This document shows positions 3,699-18,723 of a stretch of 64,000 nucleotides of DNA, piece by piece. Made by a program: the position numbers and the translations under genes. A model generated the notes under the pieces. The model was not told the DNA's origin, made no database searches, and was given only the letters and a program-made list of their open reading frames with translations. The stretch comes from Corallococcus sp. AB032C (GTDB lineage Bacteria > Myxococcota > Myxococcia > Myxococcales > Myxococcaceae): contig NZ_RAWP01000027.1 of the NCBI RefSeq assembly GCF_003668935.1, positions 17,555 through 81,554 of the forward strand. Direction: 5' to 3'. Numbering within the stretch: position 1 is the stretch's first letter; every line of letters begins with the position of its first letter.

Positions 3699-4034
3699 AT
3701 GGTCACCATCGGCATGAACTACGAAGTGCGTGAGGGCAAGGCGGAAGCCTTCGAGCGGAAGTTCGCGCTGGTGCTGGAGGCGATGCGCACGCTGCCGACG
3801 CACGCTCACACGGAGCTGTTCAAGAGCGTGGGAGCGCCGGGGCGCTACCTCATCGTCTCAGAGTGGCACAGCCGCGAGGGCTTCGACGCCTTCGTCGCGT
3901 CCGAGGCCTTCCACCGCGTGACGGACTGGGGCGCCAGCGCCATCCTCGCGAGCCGTCCGCGCCACGAGGTGTATGGCGAAAGTGCCTCCAGCGCCCTCGT
4001 GGGCCGCTGCCCGGTCGCGCACGCGGCGCGGTGA
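3699..4034 (+). CDS. Antibiotic-biosynthesis-monooxygenase (ABM) domain protein
   Basis: Seen: 111 aa; GGAGG precedes the ATG; fold pattern YxVxxGxxxxFExxF...SEWxSxExFxAFxxSExF typical of ABM/Dabb proteins. Confidence 0.7.
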   Translation: MVTIGMNYEVREGKAEAFERKFALVLEAMRTLPTHAHTELFKSVGAPGRYLIVSEWHSREGFDAFVASEAFHRVTDWGASAILASRPRHEVYGESASSALVGRCPVAHAAR

Positions 4035-4045
4035 AGCGGGTGCGA

Positions 4046-5110
4046 ATGAACGCCATCCGGGTCCTCGTGGTCGACGACGCGGCCGTGGTGCGGCGGCAGG
4101 TGTCGCTGCTGCTGGGCGCGGCTCCGGGCCTGGAGGTCGTCGCCACCGCGCCCAATGGCCGCATCGCCCTGGCGAAGGTGGAGCAGTTCCAGCCGGACGT
4201 CGTGCTGTTGGACCTGGAGATGCCGGAGCTGGACGGGCTGGAGACGCTGAAGCTCCTGCGCCAACGAGCCCCGGAGTTGCCCGTGGTGATGTTCAGCGCG
4301 CTCACCGAACGCGCGGGCGTGTTGACCCTGGAGGCGCTCGCGCTGGGGGCCCGCGACTACGTGACGAAGCCCACGTCCGCGGGCGGGATGAACATCACCG
4401 TGGAGGCCGTGCGGGACGAACTGGTGCGCAAGCTCAAGGCGCTGAACGTGCGCACGCCGTCCGCCACGCCCTCGCCTCCACTGGTGACGCGCGAGCCGCA
4501 GTCCAGACCGCGAGTTCCCGCGCGGGTGGAGGCCATCGTCGTCGGCGCGTCCACCGGAGGCCCTGGCGCGCTGGTGCGCCTGGTGTCCACGCTGCCCGCG
4601 GACCTGCCGGTGCCGGTGTTCATCGTGCAGCACATGCCGCCCCTCTTCACCCGGCTGCTCGCGGAGCGGTTGCAGGGCGTGACGCCGCTCACCGTGCGCG
4701 AGGCGGTGACCGGCGCATCCGTGAATGCGGGCGAGGTTTGGGTCGCTCCCGGCGACTTCCACCTGGCCGTGTGCCGGGATGCGACGGGCGTGCGGCTGCT
4801 CACGCACCAGGGGCCGGCGGAGAACGCGTGCCGTCCGGCGGTGGACCTGCTCTTCCGCTCCGCGGCGGAGGTGTACGGCGCGGGGGTGCTGGCGGTGGTG
4901 CTCACCGGCATGGGCCAGGACGGGCTGCGCGGCTGCCGGAGGGTGAACGAGGCAGGCGGTCAGGTGGTGGTGCAGGACCAGGCCAGCTGCGTCGTCGGCA
5001 GCATGCCGGGTGCGGTGGAACAAGCGGGGCTCGCGGATGCCGTGGTGCCCCTGGAGGCGCTGTCCCTGGAGCTGGCGCGGCGCGTGGATCCGCGCGGACG
5101 GAGGACCTGA
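4046..5110 (+). CDS. cheB: Chemotaxis response regulator protein-glutamate methylesterase CheB
   Basis: Seen: N-terminal receiver (VLVVDDAAVVRR...DVVLLDLEMPELDG) and C-terminal CheB methylesterase (VVGASTGGPGAL, VQHMPP, VVVQDQAS). ATG at 4046 is in frame with ORF 3863..5110. Confidence 0.85.
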   Translation: MNAIRVLVVDDAAVVRRQVSLLLGAAPGLEVVATAPNGRIALAKVEQFQPDVVLLDLEMPELDGLETLKLLRQRAPELPVVMFSALTERAGVLTLEALALGARDYVTKPTSAGGMNITVEAVRDELVRKLKALNVRTPSATPSPPLVTREPQSRPRVPARVEAIVVGASTGGPGALVRLVSTLPADLPVPVFIVQHMPPLFTRLLAERLQGVTPLTVREAVTGASVNAGEVWVAPGDFHLAVCRDATGVRLLTHQGPAENACRPAVDLLFRSAAEVYGAGVLAVVLTGMGQDGLRGCRRVNEAGGQVVVQDQASCVVGSMPGAVEQAGLADAVVPLEALSLELARRVDPRGRRT

Positions 5111-5112
5111 AC

Positions 5113-6003
5113 ATGTCCCTGCTTCCCGACGACTTCGCGTACCTGCGGCAGCGCGTGCTGCGCCGCTCCGGGCTCGTGCTGGAGTCCGACACGTACGCGC
5201 TGGTGGAGACGCGGCTCACGCCCCTCATGCGCGAGGAACGGCTGCCGGACCTCTCCTCCCTGGTCTCGCGGTTGCGCTCGCAGCCGGAGGGCAGTCCGCT
5301 GCACCAGCGGCTGGCGGAAGCGCTGGCCAACCACGAGACGGCCTTCTTCCGCGACGCGCCCGTCTTCGAGGCCCTGCGAACCACGGTGCTGCCCACGCTG
5401 CTGGCCAGGCGCATCCGCACGCGGACGCTGCGCATCTGGTGCGCGGCATGTGCCTACGGTCAGGAGCCCTACAGCGTCGCGATGACGCTGGCCGAGGCCG
5501 GGCTGCTCATCACCGGATGGACGGTGCGCATCCTCGCCACGGACTTCTCCACCCGCGCGATCGTGCGCGCCTGCGAGGCCCGCTACGACGCGAAGGAGAT
5601 CCACCGGGGCCTGACTCCCGAGCTGCGCCAGCGCTACTTCCACCAGGAGCGCGACGGGTGGCGGCTGAGCGAACAGGTGCGCAAGCCGGTGGAGTTCCGG
5701 CCGCTCAACCTGATGGAGGACTTCCCGCTGGAAGCGCCCGTGGATCTCGTCTTCCTGCGCAACGTGATGATCTACTGGGACGCGCCCACCCGGCGCGCGG
5801 TGCTCGCCCGCGTGCGGCGGATGCTCCACTCGGACGGCTACCTGGTGCTGGGCGCCGCGGAGGCCTCGCCCCTGGTGGAGGACGGCTTCACGCGGCACCT
5901 GATTGGACAGACGAGCTGGTACCGCCCCACGCCCGCCTCGACTGGCGTCGGCGCGCCCGTGGAGGACGTGCGGCGCTCGCCCCGCTCCGGCGCTACACCT
6001 TGA
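5113..6003 (+). CDS. cheR: Chemotaxis protein methyltransferase CheR
   Basis: Seen: CheR N-terminal helical region and SAM-dependent methyltransferase region (RIWCAACAYGQEPYSVAMTL, FLRNVMIYWD). ATG at 5113 lies 2 nt after the cheB stop. Confidence 0.85.
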   Translation: MSLLPDDFAYLRQRVLRRSGLVLESDTYALVETRLTPLMREERLPDLSSLVSRLRSQPEGSPLHQRLAEALANHETAFFRDAPVFEALRTTVLPTLLARRIRTRTLRIWCAACAYGQEPYSVAMTLAEAGLLITGWTVRILATDFSTRAIVRACEARYDAKEIHRGLTPELRQRYFHQERDGWRLSEQVRKPVEFRPLNLMEDFPLEAPVDLVFLRNVMIYWDAPTRRAVLARVRRMLHSDGYLVLGAAEASPLVEDGFTRHLIGQTSWYRPTPASTGVGAPVEDVRRSPRSGATP

Positions 6004-6913
6004 GGCGGATGGCGCCCGGCAACAGCGTCATGGTGCAGGGCAGCCGGCCCGGCGTCTCGCCGTCCACGTCCAGGAACACGTCGCCCGTCAGCGGCTCCGC
6101 GTGGAGGGTCCGGCAGCGCAGCCGCCGCGTGCCCTTCCAGGTGACGTGGTCGCCGTTGTAGACGCCCTTGGACTTGAGGACGAAGTCGGACAGGCCGTAG
6201 TTGGACCAGATGGTGACGTCGAAGAGGCCGTCGTGCGTCACCGCGTCGGGCGCCACGAACATGCCGCTGCCGAAGTAGCGGCCGTTGGCGACGGCCACCG
6301 CGGTGACGCTCACCGTCTCCGGCTCGCCGCCGTCCACCGTGAGGCGCACCTGCTGCTCCTGGTACTTGATGAGGCCCTTCACGGTGCCCCACATGAAGCT
6401 CAGGTTGCCGCCCAGCGCCTTGCTGCCCTGGTTCACCTCGCGGGCCACCACCGCGCTCACGCCGAACGAGGCGATGTTGGCGAAGAAGCGCGTGGCCGGC
6501 TTGCCGTCGTTGTCGGTGAACTCCAGCTGCCCCACGTCGAAGGGCTCGGTGGTCTCCGTGCGCAGCCGCTCCAGCGCGGACGTCAGCTCCAGGTCCCAAC
6601 CGAAGGTGCGGCGGAAGTCGCCGCCCGTGCCTCGGGGCAACAGGCCCAGCGTGGCCCGGGGGTTGATGACCTGTCCGTCGCGGAAGAAGCCGTTGGTGAC
6701 CTCGTTGAGGGTGCCGTCGCCGCCCACCGCGACGATGCACTCAAAACCGTCATCGATGGCCTGCCGCGCCAGACGCGCCGCATCCATGCCGCCGCTGGTG
6801 AAGCCGTACCCGAAGTCGCCGAGCACCTTGCCCACCTGCGCGGAGATCTCCACCCATCGCTTCCCCGTCTGCCCGTTGGCGCTGCGCGGGTTGACCACGA
6901 GGAACGTCTTCAT
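5993..6913 (-). CDS. Diacylglycerol-kinase catalytic-domain lipid kinase (YegS/DgkA-like)
   Basis: Seen: MKTFLVVNPRSANG...IVAVGGDGTLNEV motif typical of the DAGK_cat family; convergent with cheR and overlapping it by about 11 nt. Confidence 0.75.
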   Translation of the reverse strand: MKTFLVVNPRSANGQTGKRWVEISAQVGKVLGDFGYGFTSGGMDAARLARQAIDDGFECIVAVGGDGTLNEVTNGFFRDGQVINPRATLGLLPRGTGGDFRRTFGWDLELTSALERLRTETTEPFDVGQLEFTDNDGKPATRFFANIASFGVSAVVAREVNQGSKALGGNLSFMWGTVKGLIKYQEQQVRLTVDGGEPETVSVTAVAVANGRYFGSGMFVAPDAVTHDGLFDVTIWSNYGLSDFVLKSKGVYNGDHVTWKGTRRLRCRTLHAEPLTGDVFLDVDGETPGRLPCTMTLLPGAIRLKV

Positions 6914-7070
6914 TCAGTGCCTTCTCCCTGCTGCGAGAACGACCTGTTTACGCAATTGTGAGCCCAGGCTCCACTCCGTGACCCACGGGAGGGCCTTATC
7001 GCCCGGGGTGTTTGTCACCCGGCCCCGGCCATGCTGGGCTCTCCGCCCCCCATTTCGTCCCGGATCCCGA

Positions 7071-7748
7071 GTGAATGCCCCGTCCTCCACCGAGCAGCTC
7101 GCGCCCCACCGGGAGGCCACACTCGCCCTGGACTGGGCGCTGCCCGCGCTCCGAGCGGACCTGGCGGCGGCGGCGCGTCAGCCCTTCCGGGAGACAGGGG
7201 CCCAGGAGGAGTTCCTGCACCGTCATGACGCACCAGCCCATGAAGCCCAGGGGCCTGCGCGGACGGGGCGCTTCGAACGGGCCCTGGACCGGGTGCGGCG
7301 GTTCGCGGACATGGGCGAGCCGCTGACCTTCGCCCGGATGGTGGAGATCCAGTCGGAGCTCCTGGGGGCGCCCACGGGCTTCCGCACCGGAGACGCGTTC
7401 GCGCGGGGAGGCGCGCACCGCTATGCGCAAGCGCCCGGCCTGGAGGCGACCTTCCGCGACAAGGTGGAAGCGGACGCGCGGGAAGAGCGTCACCCGGTGG
7501 TACATGCCACGCGGTTGTACCTGGACCTGTGTTTCTTCCACCCCTTCCCGGACGGCAACGCCCGCGCGGCGCGGCTGTGGCTGGAATACATGCTGCGCCG
7601 GGGCCAGCTGCCCACGCCACCGTTGGCGCCCGTGGTGCTGTGGCCCAAGCGTCCGGGGGACGCGGTGAACTACACACGGCTGGCGAGGCTGCTGGCCCGG
7701 ACCATCGCGGGGCCGGACGCCCCGTGCCCCAACGAGGTGCCTGAATGA
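7071..7748 (+). CDS. Fic/Doc family protein (putative AMPylator)
   Basis: Seen: core motif HPFPDGNARAARLW (HxFx(D/E)GNxRxxR with Ala in place of the second Gly). The start is uncertain. GTG at 7071 is the first plausible in-frame start after the divergent upstream gene; the listed ORF start at 6285 is antisense read-through. Confidence 0.65.
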   Translation: MNAPSSTEQLAPHREATLALDWALPALRADLAAAARQPFRETGAQEEFLHRHDAPAHEAQGPARTGRFERALDRVRRFADMGEPLTFARMVEIQSELLGAPTGFRTGDAFARGGAHRYAQAPGLEATFRDKVEADAREERHPVVHATRLYLDLCFFHPFPDGNARAARLWLEYMLRRGQLPTPPLAPVVLWPKRPGDAVNYTRLARLLARTIAGPDAPCPNEVPE

Positions 7749-8410
7749 GCAGTGACGCTTCGGCTTTCACGTGGCGCGGCATCCGCGACAGCCTGGAGGC
7801 CTATGCACCGCAAGCGCTGGCGGCCCGGCTGCGGGAGGCCTTGGCCCCCTTGCGGTCCGGAGTCATTGCGCAAGGCCAGCTCAAGCAGGCGAAGAACGTC
7901 GTGAAGGACCTGCTCCAGGCCGAACTGGGGCCCTGGTACACGGAGAGTGGCCTGCCCCTGGGCAATGAAGTGCTGGGGGGCTATTGCTGGTGTCACTCGT
8001 TCTTCAACCAGAACCCGCCGCATCGGACGATGGACGTGGATGCGAACATCCAGCTCATGCTGGAGGCGCTGGAGCGGATCCGTTCGTTTCTGTACGCGCT
8101 GGACGGCGTGTATCAGGCCGCGCGCAGTCAGCTCGAGTTGGCGGCCGACGACAGGGCTCTCCGGGCGAAGGCGCTCGCGGAAGGGCTGGTGCGGACCGTG
8201 GACCTGACGGCGGAGACGACGTCCTGCGAGGAGACCTGGTACCAGGTCGCGCAGGACGCCATGTCGTGGTGCATCGAGGCGATGGGACTGCCCTTGTCGG
8301 ACGCCACGCAGGAGCAGTTGGACACGGCCTTCGTCTTCACGTCCTGGCTGGCGCCGCCCCCGGAGGTCCTCCGGGACGCCGCGGCGCGGGTCGCGGAGGT
8401 GGCCGTATGA
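7745..8410 (+). CDS. Hypothetical protein, paralog A of a Fic-associated pair (conserved LGPWYTE.GL.LGNE...GGYCWCH.FF...CEE.WY motifs)
   Basis: Seen: ATGA overlap with the Fic stop. 221 aa. About 40% identical to the next gene across the full length. Confidence 0.7.
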   Translation: MSSDASAFTWRGIRDSLEAYAPQALAARLREALAPLRSGVIAQGQLKQAKNVVKDLLQAELGPWYTESGLPLGNEVLGGYCWCHSFFNQNPPHRTMDVDANIQLMLEALERIRSFLYALDGVYQAARSQLELAADDRALRAKALAEGLVRTVDLTAETTSCEETWYQVAQDAMSWCIEAMGLPLSDATQEQLDTAFVFTSWLAPPPEVLRDAAARVAEVAV

Positions 8411-9102
8411 CCCGGTCGGCCCTGGGACATTGGCTGCTCATCCGCGACAGCCTGGACGGGTATGACCCGGAGAAGCTCATCCGGTTGCTGCGCGAATACC
8501 TGGCGCCGCGCGTGCCCCCGGGGACGCGCAAGCTCACGGACGAGCAGCACGACACGATGGCGAAGCACATCCAGCGGATGCTCAACCAGAACCTGGGGCC
8601 CTGGTACACGGAGACGGGTCTGTATCTGGGCAATGAGAGCTTCGGCGGCTACTGCTGGTGCCACCGTTTCTTCAGACAGAAGCCCGCCCCTAACATGAGC
8701 GTGGAATACAACATCCAGCTCATCATCAACGCGCTGGAGCAGTCGCGCGAATGGCTGTTCAAGCTGGATGCCCACTTCCAGGCGCTGAAGCGGGACCTGC
8801 CGTCCGGCCCCGGCGACAATGACATCCGGACGCTGGCGCTGGCGGATGGACTCGTCACCACGATGAACCTCACCATGGACGCCACGGGCTGCGAGGAGTC
8901 CTGGTACACCTTCGCGGACGAAGCGCTGTCCTGGATGTTCGACGCCATCGAACTGCGCCCCGGCTATCAGGCCGGGAAGCTGATGCGGAAGCTGTTCGCC
9001 TTCGAGTCCTGGCACTCGCCGCCCGAAGCGGAGCTGCGTGACTCGGCGGAGAAGGTGGCGGCGGCCGTCGTGGAAGACGAGGGCCGCCGGCACACGCATT
9101 GA
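8407..9102 (+). CDS. Hypothetical protein, paralog B of the Fic-associated pair
   Basis: Seen: ATGA overlap with paralog A. Shares LGPWYTETGLYLGNE, GGYCWCHRFF, NIQL and CEESWY blocks with paralog A. ATG at 8407 is in frame with ORF 7984..9102. Confidence 0.7.
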   Translation: MTRSALGHWLLIRDSLDGYDPEKLIRLLREYLAPRVPPGTRKLTDEQHDTMAKHIQRMLNQNLGPWYTETGLYLGNESFGGYCWCHRFFRQKPAPNMSVEYNIQLIINALEQSREWLFKLDAHFQALKRDLPSGPGDNDIRTLALADGLVTTMNLTMDATGCEESWYTFADEALSWMFDAIELRPGYQAGKLMRKLFAFESWHSPPEAELRDSAEKVAAAVVEDEGRRHTH

Positions 9103-9118: not shown

Positions 9119-9787
9119 TCAGTGGATGGGCTTGCCGCGCGTCATCCGCCGGGCCTGCTCGCGCGATCCTCCCTTCACCTCGATGCGCTTGCCCTGGGGC
9201 AGCTCCTCCGGAAGCCGCAGGGAGACCTCCAGGACGCCGTTCTCGAAGTTCGCATGGATCGACTCCGTGTCGATGCCTTCCGGGAGCGGGATGACGCGGC
9301 GGAACAGACCGGTGCTGCGCTCCAGGCTCCAGATGCCCTCGGCCTCCTCTTCCTCCTCCAGTTCGAAGGAGCGTTCGCCTTCGATGATGAGCAGGTCCTT
9401 CAGCACCTCGACGTGGATGTCCTCCCGCCGCATTCCTGGCAGGTCGGCCTTCACGATGAGGTTCCCGTTGCGCTCCAGCACGTCCACCTGCGGTGACCAG
9501 AGGCCCTCCTCCAGCAGGCCGCTCCGAGCGGTGAGGCCCCGGCCTCCGAAGCCGGAGACGAGTTGGTCCATGTCCTCCATCATCCGGCGCAGCAGCCCGA
9601 ACGGACTCGCGGGCGCGGCTTCCCTGCCGATGGCCGGTGCCTGGGATTCGCGGCGGCTGATGCCAGCGCCCGTCCTCGGGTCCTGTCCCGGCGAGGTGGC
9701 GCTCGGCACCTCGGTCTGGGCGTTCTTCATGACGGGCGAGGAGGAGGGTCCCCCCTGCGCGCCTGGGTTCCTGTTGTCGGTTGCCAT
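9119..9787 (-). CDS. Hsp20/alpha-crystallin family small heat-shock protein
   Basis: Seen: alpha-crystallin domain (PQVDVLERNGNLIVKADLPGMRREDIHVEV...GVLEVSLRLP) after a low-complexity N-terminus. ATG at 9787 (MATDN) is preferred over the upstream ATG at 9847. Confidence 0.75.
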   Translation of the reverse strand: MATDNRNPGAQGGPSSSPVMKNAQTEVPSATSPGQDPRTGAGISRRESQAPAIGREAAPASPFGLLRRMMEDMDQLVSGFGGRGLTARSGLLEEGLWSPQVDVLERNGNLIVKADLPGMRREDIHVEVLKDLLIIEGERSFELEEEEEAEGIWSLERSTGLFRRVIPLPEGIDTESIHANFENGVLEVSLRLPEELPQGKRIEVKGGSREQARRMTRGKPIH

Positions 9788-9941
9788 GACGTCCTCCCCC
9801 GGTGGAGCCGGCTGGCGCCTGGCCGCCGGACCGCACCGGTCACTCAAGCGGGGATGGAATCATCCCAACCTCGAACCTGGAGGTGCGCGGCGAGGCCAAC
9901 AAGGGGCCCGGCCCCGCGGTCCGTCACGCGAGTGAGCCTCG

Positions 9942-10829
9942 CTATGCGAGCAGCGTGGCGTCCATCACGGTCAGGGCCACTCCACCGACGCGGGCGCGTT
10001 CGATGTGGCCTGGCTGGCCGGTGACCTGGATGTCGATGCGGCCCGGCTTGCCGAGCGTGTCGCCCTGTTCGATGCGACCCGACACCGTGCCGCCGTGCTC
10101 CGGCAGGCGAAGGCTCCCATGCTCGGCGAGGTAAGCCGCGAGCGGTCCCGCGGCGGAGCCCGTCACGGGGTCCTCCAGGATGCCGAAGCCCGGGACGAAG
10201 TAGCGCGCCTGGGCCACGCTCCCCTCCTCCTTCGCTTCGCGGGTGAAGAGGTAGACGCCGCGCAAGCCGTGCGGCATCAGCAGCGCGTTCATCGCCGCGC
10301 CTCGCGGCGTCAGGGCCTCCAGGTCCGCGAGCCGCCGGAGGGGCACCACCAACCGGTGACCCTGGCGGATCACCGGCAGCGACGGGTCCACCTGCGACGC
10401 GGTCCCGCCCAACGTGGCCATCAGCGCGTCCAGGGCCACGGGGTTGGGCTGCGCGGGAGGCGGGGGCGTGGCGATCCACACCCGAGTCCCACGCGTGCCC
10501 TGGGGCTCCAGCTCGATGCCGAGCGTGCCGCCGGGGCACTCCAGCGTGTACGTCCCCGGGCTTCGCAGGAGTTCCTTCTCCGCGAGCAGGTGGAAGGTGG
10601 CCACCGTGGCGTGGCCGCAGAAGGGAATCTCGTCCACGGGCGTGAAGTAGCGCAGGCGCACGGTGGCGTCACCGGGCCGGGACAGCAGGAACGCGGTCTC
10701 CGACGCGCTGACGGCCGCGGCGGTCCGCTGCATCGTGGGGACATCCAGCGCCGAGGCGTCGAGCACCACGCCCGCGCGATTTCCCGCACCGGCGGTGCGG
10801 GTGAAGGCATCGATGATGTGGACCTGCAT
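9942..10829 (-). CDS. PhzF-family isomerase-like protein
   Basis: Seen: MQVHIIDAFT...AGNRAGVV...SETAFL, FCGHATVA and YFVPGFGILEDPVTGSAAGPLAAYL match the PhzF family. Only the last 296 codons of the 831-aa ORF are coding. The ATG lies at 10829. Confidence 0.8.
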   Translation of the reverse strand: MQVHIIDAFTRTAGAGNRAGVVLDASALDVPTMQRTAAAVSASETAFLLSRPGDATVRLRYFTPVDEIPFCGHATVATFHLLAEKELLRSPGTYTLECPGGTLGIELEPQGTRGTRVWIATPPPPAQPNPVALDALMATLGGTASQVDPSLPVIRQGHRLVVPLRRLADLEALTPRGAAMNALLMPHGLRGVYLFTREAKEEGSVAQARYFVPGFGILEDPVTGSAAGPLAAYLAEHGSLRLPEHGGTVSGRIEQGDTLGKPGRIDIQVTGQPGHIERARVGGVALTVMDATLLA

Positions 10830-10973
10830 GGACGGACTCCGGACAGGGGAAGGGTCTGGGAAACAGCGCAGGCATGCTCCTCCTGGACCGTTGGCGTCAA
10901 GCGCTGGACCGACGCACCGGAGCCCCCACAACAGGGTTGAACGAGAGCGCCAGAGCAGGCACAGCAAGGATGC

Positions 10974-11750
10974 ATGAATCTCCTGAAGTCGGGTGGGTGG
11001 GTGGTGCTGGTGGTGCTGCTCCACGCGAGCGGCGCGGCGGCACAGATCGTCAACGTGCAGGCGCTCTTCGACGAGAAGGCGGAGCCGGGACCGGCCGCGG
11101 CCATCGAGCTGGGTGGCGACTGGCGCACGGGCAGCACGGAGCTGTTCTCCATTCGGGGCTCCCTGGTGGGCCAGCTGCGCTCCGAGCGTGACGTCTGGCT
11201 GGGCGTCATCCGGGGTGAGTATTCGTTCGCCAGCGGCGAGCGCATCGTCAGCCAGGTGCTGGAGCACGTGCGCTACCGGCGCAAGCTCACGGACACGGTG
11301 TCGGGCGAGATCTTCGCGCAGCACGAATACAACGAGTTCCGCCGGCTCCAGCTCCGGATCCTGCTGGGCGCGGGACCGCGCTTCATCCTGCTCAACGAGG
11401 ACCGCCTGGGGCTCACCTTCGGGGTGGCGCTGATGCTGGAGCACGAGCGGCTGCGCAAGGACGGAGAGCCGGACGCGGGAGACCGCTACACGGATCCGCG
11501 AGTCTCCAGCTACCTGCTGGGACGGATAAAGCTGATGGAGAACATCAACCTCGTGGAGACGGTCTACATCCAGCCGCGAGTCACCCGTCCCTCCGACCTG
11601 CGCGTGCTCAACGAGACGATCTTCGCGGTGACACCCAATCCCCGCGTCACAGTGGGCATCGGCTTCAACCTCACCTACGACAGCGCGCCGCCCGCGACAG
11701 TGCCCGCCCTGGACACGCAGCTGCGCACCACGGTGGGTGTGAAGCTTTGA
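10974..11750 (+). CDS. Putative outer-membrane beta-barrel protein (DUF481-like) with signal peptide
   Basis: Seen: N-terminal signal peptide (VVLVVLLHASGAAAQ), alternating hydrophobic beta-strand pattern, C-terminal aromatic/hydrophobic end (TTVGVKL). Family assignment is from memory. Confidence 0.55.
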   Translation: MNLLKSGGWVVLVVLLHASGAAAQIVNVQALFDEKAEPGPAAAIELGGDWRTGSTELFSIRGSLVGQLRSERDVWLGVIRGEYSFASGERIVSQVLEHVRYRRKLTDTVSGEIFAQHEYNEFRRLQLRILLGAGPRFILLNEDRLGLTFGVALMLEHERLRKDGEPDAGDRYTDPRVSSYLLGRIKLMENINLVETVYIQPRVTRPSDLRVLNETIFAVTPNPRVTVGIGFNLTYDSAPPATVPALDTQLRTTVGVKL

Positions 11751-12132
11751 GTGGGTGGCAAGGAGCGCGTTGACGAACCGGGCGCGGAAGCCAGGCTCGG
11801 GAGGAAGCATCTTCTCCAGCGTCAACGGTTCACCCACGGTCACCGCGCGCGGCGTGCGCCTGGGGCCCTGCACCACCAGGCCCCGCGCCGCGATCCACCG
11901 AAGCGCGTCGCGCGCTGTGTCCCGGAATACGGAATAGAGACGCGCCAGCTTCGCTTCCGTTCCGAATCGCGCACGGGCCGTCAGTCTCCCAAGCGAAAGC
12001 CCGCGCTCGAACTGCGCCCCCACATCCACCACGCTCCCCACTCGCACCATCCCCATCCCCTCTTCGTCCCAGCATCGCCATCCAACCACAGGGGTCTGAC
12101 ATGGACTCGACGTCACCCGTCGGGCCAGCACG

Positions 12133-12347
12133 GCCCCGGGCCCCATGCGGCGAAAACCTGTCCGACTGTCGGACAGGTTTGGAGGGAACCGGCCCCGTGC
12201 GGGCGCCGCTGTCCGTGACATCACCTTGGCGTCGGCACGCCCGACGTCGCTCAATGGCGGGGCTGGCGTGGCCCCGGGCCTCATGCAGGGGAAGCCTGTC
12301 CGACTGTCGGACAAGTTTGGAGGTAACCGGCCCCGGGCGGGCGCCTC
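12133..12347. repeat. Two direct copies (12133-12207 and 12271-12347, period about 138 bp) of a ~75-bp element with a 21-bp perfect palindrome core CCTGTCCGACTGTCGGACAGG
   Basis: Seen: the copies are about 85% identical. The palindrome core is at 12157-12177 (perfect) and 12295-12313 (19/21). The element lies in a 745-bp intergenic region upstream of proC. Confidence 0.8.
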
Positions 12348-12495
12348 TCTTCGTGGGCCCGCCCCACCGCCCGCGCCTGCATCCCGTCGGTCCCCATTGC
12401 CGCACCCCGCCAAGGCGCGCGCCGTCGCGGAGACCACAGGGTCACGGACCCTGTTGGCGAACTCCTGGCGGCCTACCTGAGGTTAGGCTTCAGCC

Positions 12496-13347
12496 ATGGC
12501 GTCCCCCTCCATTCCCGCCCCCGTCGTCCTTTTGGGGGGCGGCAAGATCGCCGAAGCCCTCATCCTGGGACTGTTGCGGTCCGGCCACGTACGTCCTTCG
12601 GACCTTCGCGTCACGGTGCGCCGGCCCGAGCGCGGAGAGGAATTGCGCTCCCGGCACGGCGTGCACGTCCTCATGGACAACGCGCAGGCGGTGCGGGGCG
12701 CGGGCGTAGTCGTGCTGGCGGTGCGACAGGCGCAGCTGCGGGACCTGATGGCGGTCATCTCGCCTGCCTTGGAACATGGGCAGACCGTGGTGTCGCTTTC
12801 CGCGGACGTGCGGCTCGCGCAGTTGGAAGCGGCTTTGCCCTCCAGCGTCTCCGTCATCCGCGCCCTGCCCCATACGCCCGTGCGCGTGGGAGCAGGCGTG
12901 ACGCCCCTGACGGCCGGGACCCGAGCGACGGAGACCGCGAGACAGGCCACCGAGTCCGTCTTCGCGGCGACGGGACGGCCCATGTGGATGACCGAGGAAG
13001 CGCTCACCGTCTGCACGGGCGTGTGCGGCACGGGCCCCGCGTATGTCTTCCGCTTCGTGGAGACCCTGGCCCAGGCCGCGATGGCGCACGGAATGGACGC
13101 GGCGGAAGCGGCGGCACTCGCGAAGGAAACGCTCATTGGCGCGGCGAAGCTGTTGGCCGAACCCGGCGCCACCACCCCTCGCCTCATCACGGAAATAGCG
13201 ACCCCGGGAGGCATCACCGAGGCGGGCCTGATGGCGATGGACTCCCACGGCCTCCCTCGCGTCGTGGGCGAAGCGGTCTCCGTCGCCATCCAGCGCACCC
13301 GGGAGCGCGCGGACGCGAACGCCGCGGCCTACAGCGCGCCGAAGTGA
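12496..13347 (+). CDS. proC: Pyrroline-5-carboxylate reductase
   Basis: Seen: N-terminal Rossmann fold (VLLGGGKIAEALILGLL), a P5CR dimerisation-domain motif (GVCGTGPAYVFRFVETLAQAAMAHGM) and TPGGITEAGL. Confidence 0.85.
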   Translation: MASPSIPAPVVLLGGGKIAEALILGLLRSGHVRPSDLRVTVRRPERGEELRSRHGVHVLMDNAQAVRGAGVVVLAVRQAQLRDLMAVISPALEHGQTVVSLSADVRLAQLEAALPSSVSVIRALPHTPVRVGAGVTPLTAGTRATETARQATESVFAATGRPMWMTEEALTVCTGVCGTGPAYVFRFVETLAQAAMAHGMDAAEAAALAKETLIGAAKLLAEPGATTPRLITEIATPGGITEAGLMAMDSHGLPRVVGEAVSVAIQRTRERADANAAAYSAPK

Positions 13348-16038: not shown

Positions 16039-18723
16039 TCACCGGGCGCGGAGGAACGCCTTGACGCTCGGGGACTGGAGCTTCTGGGACTCGATGCACA
16101 GCCGGATGGACTCCAGGGCCCGGGTGAGCGCGCGCGGTCCGCCTTCAATCTTGTCCACGCGGGGCGTGAGGAACGTCTCCACCTGCGCCAGGTGGATGTC
16201 ATCGCAGAGGCTCCCCGTCTGGCCAATCAGCCGGCCCAGCTCATCCGAACGCAGCCGCTGGGCCAGCGCATCGAAGTGCGTCTGGTAGAAGTTCCACGCC
16301 AGCGACTGCGACTCCGGCGACATCAACGCCATCCGGAGGATGATCTGCGAGTCGCGCACGTCGAAGTCCGGAGACACCACGAGCCCCAACGCCCTCCACA
16401 ACAGCTCCGGGCTCCGGAAGTAGCCCAGCGACATCAGCAGCCGGGAACGCTCGGTGCGGTCCTGTTCCTTCTTCGCCGCTTCCAGCAGCGCGTCGAACAG
16501 CGCCGCATCGCCGTGCGTCGCCGCTCGGGGCAGCGCGGCACTGAACGCCTCCGGGTCCACCGACTTGCGGTCCGCCAGCCATGCGCGCACCAGGGGCAGC
16601 GCCTCCTTCACCAGCCGAGGGTCATCGCCCAGACCCCCGGCCAGCCGGAGGAACAGGGAGCGTGAATCCTTCACGGAGTCGTCCTCGCCCGGCTTCGGCA
16701 CCCAGCCCATGGCCCGCGCGCGCGCCGAGTAGAGCGAGGCCACCCACGCGCGGAAGCGCTGGCGCTCCTCGGGCGTGAGCTGCTCCAGACGCACGAGCTC
16801 CAGCAGCGAGGCGCCGCTCTGCACCACGAGCCGGTTCGTCGACTTCGCGGAGGCAGGCACCGCCTTCAGCGCCTCCCCCAGCGGCAGGTCGCCCCGGCTC
16901 ACCGCCGCATCCACATCCGCCCAGAGCGCCATCTGCTCCGCGGGAGTGAAGGCGGCGGCCGGAGTCGCGAGCAGCTTCGTCAACTGCTCGCGGGTGTAAC
17001 CGCCGCGGTAGTAACCCGTGCCGCCCGCGTTGAGCAGCACCCACGCCGGGCACTGCTTCGAGGGCAGCGCGACCTCCGTCGAGGGCCCCTGCACCATCGA
17101 GCACACCCGCGACGACTGCGTGCCCGTGCCCACGCGAAGACACACGGGCACCTGCCATTCCTGCCGCGAGTCCGCCTTGGAGCCCACGGGCAGGTACCGC
17201 TCCTGCGACAGCTTCACGGACGGAGCACCGCCCGCCGGGCACGACAGCTGCGCGGTGATCCGAGGCGCCCCGCTCCGCTCGATGAACCCGCCGAAGGATT
17301 GCGCCACCTCCGGCCCCGCCGCCTGGGACAGGTCCGCGAGGAAGTCCTCCATCGTCGCGACCTTCCACGCGTGCTTGCGGACATAGCCCCGGAGGAAGTC
17401 GCGGAAGCGCTCCGGTCCCATCCAGGCCTCGTACATGGCGATGACGGACGAGCCCTTGTCATACGTCGTCCCGTTGTCGAACGAGCCCACGATGTCGTCA
17501 TTGCTCTCCACCGGCTTGCGCACGGGCAGCGCCGACGCCAGCTCATCCGACGCCAGGGCGGAGCGGGTCGCGGACATGGCGCGCTCCTGCTGGTAGTCCC
17601 AGGACGGCTCCAGCCGGTCCACGGTCTGCCGGTCCAACCACGCGGTGAAGGATTCGTTCAGCCAGATGTCGTTCCACCAGGAGCAGGTGACGACGTCCCC
17701 GAACCAGTAGTGGCCCAGCTCATGGTTGGCGATGACCGCGTACGACTTGCGGCGAGCCAGCGTCTCCTCGCCGGGCGGAATGAGCGTGAGCGGCTGTCCG
17801 AGCGCGACGATGCCCGGGTGCTCCATGGTGCCCCAGTACCGGGGCACGACCGCCACATCGAGCTTCTCGTACGGATACGGCTGGTCGAAGAAGTCCTCCA
17901 GTCCCTTCACGATGCGAGGCGTGATGCTCGCGGCGAAGCGAGTCTCCGCACCCCGGCCCTTGGGGACGATGAAGCGCAGCGGCACGTTCGTGCGTCCCAC
18001 GGTGCCTGCCTCCACCACGTCGAACGGCCCCACCATGAAGGCCACGAGGTAGCTGGGCATCGGCTTGCTTTCCGCGAAGGTGACGCGCTCCAGGCCGTCC
18101 GCCAGCGGTTCGCGCGACACGACGGGATGGTTGGCCAGCGCCACGTGTCCGGCCTTCACGGTGAAGCGCAGGCGCCACGGCACCTTGAAGGTCGGCTCGT
18201 CGAAGCACGGGAAGGCACGGCGCGCGTCGATGGGCTCGAAGAACGTGTAGAGGTAGGGCTCACCGCCCTCCTCCACCCCGTAGATGCCCTGGCTGCGCTC
18301 ACGGTCCACCTTGCCCGTGAAGTCGAGCAGGAGCTGGGCCTTGCCCACCGGCAGTTCCTCCGGCAGCAGCAATCCCAGACGTCCTTCGGGCGCGGTGACA
18401 GGCTTCGCGGCGAACGTGCGGCCCGCCACGGTGACACGCGCCCGCGTCACTTCCACGTCCTGCGCATGCAGCCACACCTGGCGCACGGGCTCGCGGACCT
18501 CCACGTCGATGGTGACGCTCCCCGGGTACGTGTCCTCCTTGGGCACGAGCTTCAGGTCCAGCGCGTAGTGCACGGGCCGCACGGTGTCCGGCAACCGTAG
18601 CGCGGGAGGCAGTGCCTCCGGCCACGAGACGGCGGGCGGCGCGGAAGCAGCCGGTGCGGCCTCCGGCGCGTGGGCACAGCGGACGGTCAACACCACCAGG
18701 ACGAGGAGTGGGAGCAGTCGCAT
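16039..18723 (-). CDS. pepN: Secreted M1-family aminopeptidase N
   Basis: Seen: signal peptide; gluzincin motif HELGHYWFGD...WLNESFTAW; GAMEN-like upstream region; 894 aa. Confidence 0.85.
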   Translation of the reverse strand: MRLLPLLVLVVLTVRCAHAPEAAPAASAPPAVSWPEALPPALRLPDTVRPVHYALDLKLVPKEDTYPGSVTIDVEVREPVRQVWLHAQDVEVTRARVTVAGRTFAAKPVTAPEGRLGLLLPEELPVGKAQLLLDFTGKVDRERSQGIYGVEEGGEPYLYTFFEPIDARRAFPCFDEPTFKVPWRLRFTVKAGHVALANHPVVSREPLADGLERVTFAESKPMPSYLVAFMVGPFDVVEAGTVGRTNVPLRFIVPKGRGAETRFAASITPRIVKGLEDFFDQPYPYEKLDVAVVPRYWGTMEHPGIVALGQPLTLIPPGEETLARRKSYAVIANHELGHYWFGDVVTCSWWNDIWLNESFTAWLDRQTVDRLEPSWDYQQERAMSATRSALASDELASALPVRKPVESNDDIVGSFDNGTTYDKGSSVIAMYEAWMGPERFRDFLRGYVRKHAWKVATMEDFLADLSQAAGPEVAQSFGGFIERSGAPRITAQLSCPAGGAPSVKLSQERYLPVGSKADSRQEWQVPVCLRVGTGTQSSRVCSMVQGPSTEVALPSKQCPAWVLLNAGGTGYYRGGYTREQLTKLLATPAAAFTPAEQMALWADVDAAVSRGDLPLGEALKAVPASAKSTNRLVVQSGASLLELVRLEQLTPEERQRFRAWVASLYSARARAMGWVPKPGEDDSVKDSRSLFLRLAGGLGDDPRLVKEALPLVRAWLADRKSVDPEAFSAALPRAATHGDAALFDALLEAAKKEQDRTERSRLLMSLGYFRSPELLWRALGLVVSPDFDVRDSQIILRMALMSPESQSLAWNFYQTHFDALAQRLRSDELGRLIGQTGSLCDDIHLAQVETFLTPRVDKIEGGPRALTRALESIRLCIESQKLQSPSVKAFLRAR

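Follow-up and report, generated by a model that had tools for sequence, protein, structure and literature searches.

The stretch of Corallococcus sp. AB032C DNA examined here (64,000 nucleotides, positions 17,555 to 81,554 of contig NZ_RAWP01000027.1; 'the window' below) holds a gene for a Fic-family protein followed directly by two paralogous genes of a protein family that we call X, the two copies being X-A and X-B. Our main finding is that one particular clade of Fic proteins almost certainly has X as its dedicated partner domain, found either as a translationally overlapping neighbour of the Fic gene or fused to Fic in a single polypeptide, and there is good reason to expect that the partnership is a physical one. 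X is covered by no curated family, and both the partner domain and its split-or-fused architecture are new. A Fic enzyme accompanied by a cognate control or accessory element is a known theme, and within the superfamily the Fic part is nothing out of the ordinary, though it belongs to a distinct clade with GNAR in place of GNGR in the active-site motif. A literature search on a Fic-X module or on myxobacterial Fic proteins found nothing relevant.

The elements of the locus, in window coordinates, are as follows.

6914..7070, no strand assigned: divergent intergenic region, presumed promoter of the Fic-X-X operon, placed by the open reading frame (ORF) map between a YegS/DAGK-like lipid kinase gene (minus strand, start 6913) and Fic.
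7071..7748, plus strand: Fic-family gene, GTG start, 225 residues, stop TGA at 7746-7748, clade signature HPFxDGNARxAR.
7539..7574, plus strand: Fic active-site motif HPFPDGNARAAR, residues 157-168, by direct reading of the sequence.
7734..7748, plus strand: coupling junction 1, Shine-Dalgarno-like GAGGTG at 7734-7739, then ATGA; the X-A start at 7745 overlaps the Fic stop at 7746-7748.
7745..8410, plus strand: X-A, 221 residues, the faster-evolving, dispensable paralog in the Fic partner family, 44% identical to X-B.
7985..7996, plus strand: CWCH of X-A, residues 81-84, from the sequence.
8395..8410, plus strand: coupling junction 2, GGAGGTG at 8395-8401, then ATGA; the X-B start at 8407 overlaps the X-A stop at 8408-8410.
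8407..9102, plus strand: X-B, 231 residues, the conserved copy and the ortholog of the lone X found in other genera, predicted all-helical with a structured Cys/His loop.
8653..8664, plus strand: CWCH of X-B, residues 83-86, from the sequence; together with Cys162 (in CEESWY) a possible 3Cys-1His site.

The first-pass annotation of this DNA had described a Fic gene trailed by two coupled paralogs of about 40% identity, each start overlapping the preceding stop, and this description holds up: X-A and X-B align over 215 residues at 44% identity (E 2e-60), both junctions read ATGA, and both ATGs are preceded, 5 nucleotides upstream, by GAGGTG or GGAGGTG. Two such overlaps with Shine-Dalgarno-like sites are the classical layout for translational coupling. 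The Fic ORF matches Pfam Fic (PF02661) with E 2.2e-9 and 38.5 bits against a cutoff of 24, and is a member of the Fic/Fido family by this curated threshold. It is identical over its full length to an annotated 225-residue 'Fic family protein [Corallococcus exiguus]', which means that the assigned start is no artefact. X-B has 98% identity to a protein of Corallococcus sp. CA041A, and the region is from C. exiguus or a species very near to it. The G+C content is about 70% across the region. The promoter of the operon presumably lies in 6914..7070; no sigma-70 consensus was found upstream of Fic, in a promoter and terminator scan that is uninformative for a high-GC organism.

The evidence that carries the main finding comes from the relatives of X. 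An exhaustive hidden Markov model search of 1.84 billion representatives, with a cutoff of E<=1e-3, returned about 149 representative clusters of X; a word-indexed search returned Myxococcaceae orthologs only. In 23 of these ~149 clusters X forms the N-terminal part of a 374-550-residue protein whose C-terminal part is a Pfam Fic domain, the named examples being listed as 'Fic family protein' from metagenome-assembled genomes (MAGs) of Myxococcota. The window Fic and the Fic halves of the fusions show 29-35% identity and share two clade-specific blocks, the flap FRxxxAFAxxGxxRY and the stretch YLDxxFFHPFxDGNARxAR. The split arrangement, in which a Fic gene of the clade lies directly upstream of X and overlaps it, is present in three unrelated metagenomic neighbourhoods (L008, L009/L010 and L011/L012), and the same overlapping Fic-then-X order is present in four myxobacterial genera, Corallococcus, Pyxidicoccus, Myxococcaceae JPH2 and Hyalangium, always divergent to the YegS/DAGK-like gene (loci L001-L005 and L030). 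A narrower genome scan with a single pattern gave Corallococcus and Pyxidicoccus only, and a metagenome scan one locus. Myxococcus xanthus appears to be without the module. On one short contig (L007) only 36 nucleotides follow X. Another metagenome contig (L032:699-2052) has an X ORF and then Fic-coding sequence spread over two other reading frames; this could be a pair of separate genes, X before Fic, in which Fic is frameshifted, or else a fusion gene interrupted by sequencing errors. The AlphaFold2 model of one fusion, P0099, has a predicted local distance difference test score (pLDDT) of 92.4 and a predicted template modelling score (pTM) of 0.72, with the 40-residue linker modelled confidently, and is consistent with a defined two-domain assembly. 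Taken together, X-Fic fusions and independently conserved adjacency strongly indicate that the two proteins are linked directly in function and, probably, physically. The early suggestion that the paralogs are Fic partners in a novel module is thus backed by the 23 fusion clusters, the independent contexts and the four-genus synteny, and where that annotation asked whether the homologs might never be Fic-associated, or the Fic ORF might be broken, we find the opposite. Directly upstream of one X-Fic fusion gene, in a Myxococcota MAG (L031:5408-5926), is an ORF with a weak, sub-threshold resemblance (E 1e-4) to SUKH/SMI1-KNR4 immunity-type proteins.

X had been called unrecognisable at first sight, and profile searches agree: it matches nothing in Pfam, NCBIfam, PADLOC or PHROGs, its profile has no match among PDB sequences, its predicted all-helical fold has no significant match in the PDB, and no DNA-binding or other known domain was found in it with Pfam and NCBIfam. 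No homologs were found on plasmids or phages. The blocks pointed out earlier, LGPWYTE, LGNE, GGYCWCH.FF, NIQL and CEE.WY, are all present in X-A and X-B. In an alignment of 55 X domains the near-invariant positions are, in X-B numbering, G64, W66, C83, H86, D/E164, W166, W176, F199, S201, W202 and P205; C83 is conserved at 91% and H86 at 89%, and the second Cys at 62% of its aligned column, its position being shifted in the CCxxH-type members. The invariance claimed for GGYCWCH applies to Corallococcus and close relatives, among which alone CWCH is constant, and does not extend to the family, in which the motif reads C-x-C-H in the split branch, C-C-x-x-H in the fusion branch and its standalone relatives, or is missing. 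A plausible role for these residues, in the members that have them, would be a site of two to three Cys and one His (Zn or a 3Cys-1His cluster) stapling a loop to the helical bundle. A c-type heme site (CxxCH) was considered and discarded, because the residues are spaced as CxCH or CCxxH and a signal peptide is absent. X is also not a degenerate duplicate of Fic, since the two show no profile-profile or fold similarity.

In the window Fic the catalytic His, Asp and Asn and both Arg of the motif HPFPDGNARAAR are intact, and the second Gly of GNGR is Ala. The H, D, G, N, R and R positions are invariant among 74 aligned members of the Fic clade, with the motif Phe likewise present and invariant in the clade, and at motif position 8 the clade has Ala in 71 of 78 sequences (GNAR), Ser in four (GNSR) and Gly in three (GNGR). 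With its catalytic residues present, and these invariant in 74 clade members, the window enzyme is very likely active. What the clade does not share with most Fic proteins is the inhibitory motif (S/T)xxxE(G/N), which accompanies about 90% of canonical-motif Fic proteins, in trans in class I and in cis in classes II and III (PMC3667792). It occurs in only 4 of 78 clade sequences and at inconsistent positions, and does not mark the clade as class II or III. Nor does X carry it: the 8 sporadic pattern matches among the 55 aligned X domains are close to the number expected by chance, and X as bearer of the canonical motif was rejected. Because the motif is conserved in neither the Fic clade nor X, against its ~90% frequency elsewhere, another control element is plausible. 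The nearest solved relatives of the window Fic are class II enzymes, FICD by sequence and SoFic, FICD and BT_2513 by fold.

Why should there be two copies of X in the window? In a neighbour-joining tree X-B groups with the single X of JPH2 and of one-copy Corallococcus species; the X-A sequences make up a clade of their own with longer branches, younger than the divergence from Pyxidicoccus. Orthologs of X-A are restricted to some Corallococcus; five Corallococcus species examined keep X-B and have no X-A (loci L020, L021, L024, L026 and L027), C. coralloides KYC2213 has an X-A of 151 residues left by an in-frame deletion (L017:2549-3004), and X-A is truncated in two database clusters (P0025 and P0032). 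The ratio of nonsynonymous to synonymous substitution rates (dN/dS) is 0.24-0.35 for Fic, 0.14-0.48 for X-B and 0.36-0.61 for X-A, all below 1. We read X-B as the ancestral, constrained copy and X-A as the diverging, dispensable one. Given the tree and the loss and truncation of X-A, the duplication is a Corallococcus-specific elaboration and not part of what defines the module.

We propose the following scenario, starting from the gene structure, the paralogy, the family-wide association and fusion with Fic, the intact catalytic motif and the failure to find known inhibitory motifs, all of which are observed here. Fic-X-X would be one operon for a two-component Fic enzyme. Fic would provide the catalytic subunit, with a complete set of nucleotide-phosphate-transferring residues and without a canonical inhibitory helix motif of its own. 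X would be an all-helical accessory subunit of ~220 residues, supplied in fixed proportion through translational coupling and, in other lineages, as an N-terminal fusion. We infer that X binds Fic directly and governs its activity; it might then keep the enzyme restrained or gated until triggered by a signal, perhaps metal or redox state perceived through the conserved Cys-Cys-His(-Cys) loop. X would in this manner take the role played in classes I-III by a small inhibitory helix, to which it is unrelated and compared with which it is much larger, and X-A might act as a second regulator or alternative partner in Corallococcus. Inference begins with the physical complex and extends to the direction of regulation, the sensing of metal or redox state, the chemistry of the modification and the target in the cell. 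The regulatory role of X, with gating of Fic and possible metal or redox responsiveness of the loop, is the reading we tentatively adopt, and we would not put it at even chances. Going further, one could imagine a fourth mode of Fic control, in which a cofactor-bearing helical sensor (Zn or Fe-S, held by two to three Cys and His) gates a GNAR-type Fic by redox or metal status, in trans or in cis, with two paralogous sensors tuning one enzyme in Corallococcus; we regard this full version as improbable. Since X has no plasmid or phage homologs and the locus is syntenic across genera, the module probably serves a resident cellular function, and because its hosts are social, predatory myxobacteria, its target may be related to their physiology.

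Several observations weigh against this scenario and deserve to be set out together. The signature of AMPylating Fic proteins is a strict HxFx(D/E)GNGRxxR, and deviation from it may signal other transfer chemistry (PMC3667792); the Gly-to-Ala replacement in GNGR may therefore mean that the reaction here is not AMPylation. The split-type Fic proteins may, in addition, have a built-in brake. Glu46 of the window Fic (7206-7208) is kept in 39 of 48 of them, often as T-x-x-x-E, ~111 residues before the catalytic His, a spacing roughly like that in the class II enzyme SoFic, in which the inhibitory Glu is E73 and the catalytic His is H198. Glu46 may thus be a degenerate class II inhibitory Glu, in which case X would not be needed for inhibition. 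The residue following the motif in the split forms is E, D, V, I or A, not G or N, and the X-Fic fusions have R, L or Q in the Glu46 column. Two further conserved segments of the split proteins, residues 22-33 and 55-57, are missing from the fusions, and an alternative to the inhibitory Glu is that Glu46 and these segments form a docking surface for X acting in trans. The Cys/His motif is missing from some X members, namely those of P0038, P0051 and P0060 and that of Hyalangium; the Hyalangium rubrum protein (P0040; L030:6001-6711) sits in a syntenic Fic-X locus and is otherwise well conserved, with GGYVSSYFF replacing GGYCWCHSFF and the later Cys retained (GCEDAWY). The third Cys (C162, in CEESWY) is found in about half of the cluster representatives and is Ala in most fusions. 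With the motif lost in some members and the third Cys replaced in most fusions, metal or redox sensing cannot be universal. A sub-branch of X proteins of ~510 residues (P0072 at L013:1950-3464; also P0073, P0085 and P0086) continues into a different, 290-residue C-terminal domain, with no Pfam match and no similarity to the Fic or X profiles, and no Fic gene is nearby (L013). The dN/dS values are fairly high overall (0.14-0.61). Lastly, the accessory domains of other Fic proteins, such as TPR, ankyrin, LRR, BID and wHTH, serve mostly in targeting or localisation and not in inhibition.

This last point favours a rival in which X is a target-recognition or adaptor subunit that recruits substrates or sets the location of the enzyme, the two Corallococcus paralogs providing two alternative specificities. 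The same fusions and adjacency speak for it as for regulation; targeting modules are what most characterised extra domains of Fic proteins are (TPR in FICD, ankyrin in AnkX, LRR in AvrAC, BID in the Bep proteins); a duplicated, fast-diverging and dispensable X-A would suit a specificity subunit that is gained and lost; X is large (~220 residues) with many invariant Trp able to form a binding surface; and the split enzymes may already have Glu46 for their own restraint. What makes us consider this rival unlikely, if the most serious of the alternatives, is that no protein- or ligand-binding fold was recognised in X, that its most conserved residues (C, H, D/E, S and W) resemble a cofactor or active site more than a variable recognition surface, and that outside Myxococcota no candidate target gene is conserved nearby. 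If such residues were catalytic, X could be an enzyme in its own right that undoes or finishes what Fic does, for example a hydrolase using Cys/His/Asp or Ser/His/Asp, or else X could be the Fic substrate. C83, H86, D/E164 and S201 are indeed near-invariant, pairs of AMPylation enzyme and eraser exist (SidM and SidD), and the Fic-1-AntF deAMPylase is among the PDB matches. Yet the predicted all-helical fold matches no hydrolase, members without the Cys and His exist, and a substrate fused one-to-one to its enzyme and modified just once would be an odd design to find in 23 independent clusters, so that we give this idea very little credence.

If the locus were a classical toxin-antitoxin or defence module, Fic would be a toxin that arrests growth, X its labile antitoxin or an immunity protein, the setting a selfish or defence island, and the fusions autoinhibited sensor-effectors. 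This would account for the two-gene overlap and the relatively high dN/dS, and class I Fic toxin-antitoxin pairs are known (PMC3667792, PMC5033356). A NACHT gene adjoins the pair in L008, the weakly SUKH-like ORF adjoins the fusion in L031, and the Fic domain has weak PADLOC similarity to SoFic, PDC-S04 and PDC-S24. These matches, however, reflect generic Fic-domain similarity and fall far below full length: the window Fic has only partial Fic-domain matches to known PADLOC defence systems (best PDC-S24, E 1.8e-8, 31.7 bits), and X has none. The toxin would come first in the gene order, with a partner as large as itself; X has neither a DNA-binding domain nor the alpha-inh motif; and the pair is vertically inherited at one syntenic site beside the lipid kinase gene in at least four genera. 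Synteny, the size and downstream position of X, its lack of a DNA-binding domain and the want of X homologs on plasmids or phages together make such a module less likely, and we think it rather improbable. The synteny itself might suggest that X is an unrelated conserved hypothetical protein travelling with Fic by shared ancestry in Myxococcota; synteny alone explains the layout within Myxococcaceae and Archangiaceae, and most X members come from Myxococcota-like genomes or metagenomes. Incidental adjacency is nevertheless close to refuted by the 23 fusion clusters, and it sits badly with the three non-syntenic contexts holding the same overlapping pair and with the clade-specific co-variation that sets split and fused forms apart; it is hardly credible.

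Whichever role X has, Fic enzymes rank among the major classes of post-translational modifier, and for most bacterial ones the means of activation is the central question. Here is a Fic clade without the textbook inhibitory helix motif, accompanied by an undescribed 220-residue domain as a coupled gene or a fusion, and the Fic-X pair offers a tractable way into the control or targeting of such enzymes. X is a domain family worthy of a name in annotation, the split forms now going under 'hypothetical protein' and the fusions carrying no annotation for their X half. The finding matters chiefly to the Fic and AMPylation field and to annotation.

The genes flanking the operon in the window are these.

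5993-6913, minus strand: YegS/DAGK_cat lipid-kinase gene, divergent from the Fic-X operon (ORF map).
3699-6003: upstream flank with an ABM-type monooxygenase-like ORF, CheB (response regulator plus methylesterase) and CheR (reading of translations and ortholog annotations).
9119-9847, minus strand: Hsp20 gene, downstream flank (Pfam).
Within 9119-13347: PhzF-like ORF, downstream flank (reading of translations and ortholog annotations).
10974-11750: gene for a DUF481 protein, downstream flank (Pfam).
12496-13347: gene for a ProC-like reductase, downstream flank (reading of translations and ortholog annotations).

With the divergent DAGK_cat/Fic layout kept in all four genera, Fic-X could conceivably have to do with lipid metabolism. 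The neighbours of Fic-X in L011, an unrelated locus, are acyltransferase, CarS-like and methyltransferase genes. Between the DUF481 and ProC-like genes an intergenic element of 96 nucleotides is present twice (12122-12217 and 12260-12355), the copies being 84% identical and 138 nucleotides apart; each holds the 27-nucleotide palindrome AAACCTGTCCGACTGTCGGACAGGTTT, and the repeat could be of the extragenic repetitive kind or serve to bind a protein.

Among known systems, the uridylyl-transferring Fic effector of Xanthomonas, XopAC/AvrAC, is the one whose NCBIfam model (NF041381) resembles the window Fic most (E 1.3e-8, in the Fic part of the protein), but with 34 bits against a family cutoff of 450 the window Fic falls far short of membership. 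Like the X-Fic fusions, AvrAC joins Fic to a large N-terminal accessory domain, which in AvrAC is LRR, and AvrAC is a secreted effector. Fic-1/AntF of Pseudomonas fluorescens (the complex being a deAMPylase by the title of PDB entry 8wt0) and Doc/Phd resemble Fic-X in that an enzyme of the Fic fold has a cognate partner that alters its action, but AntF and Phd are small and unrelated to X, with no sequence or fold similarity found, and Doc is a kinase with a different motif. In the class II enzymes FICD/HYPE, SoFic and BT_2513 the accessory domain is TPR or wHTH, where that of the present clade is X; the clade differs from them also in the replaced second Gly of the motif and in having no canonical N-terminal TxxxE(G/N), a TxxxE being present, and partly conserved, in its split forms alone. 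The class I antitoxins are ~60 residues long, encoded upstream and built on one helix with (S/T)xxxE(G/N), whereas X has 221-231 residues, is encoded downstream, does not conserve the motif and is unrelated to them in sequence and predicted fold, and class I Fic proteins have GNGR where the window Fic has GNAR. In organisation, the class I pairs VbhT-VbhA and EcFicT-EcFicA are nevertheless like Fic-X, with a separate, co-transcribed and Fic-specific partner, and the relation of class I to classes II and III parallels that of split to fused X, the function of the partner being found within the same polypeptide in a related lineage.

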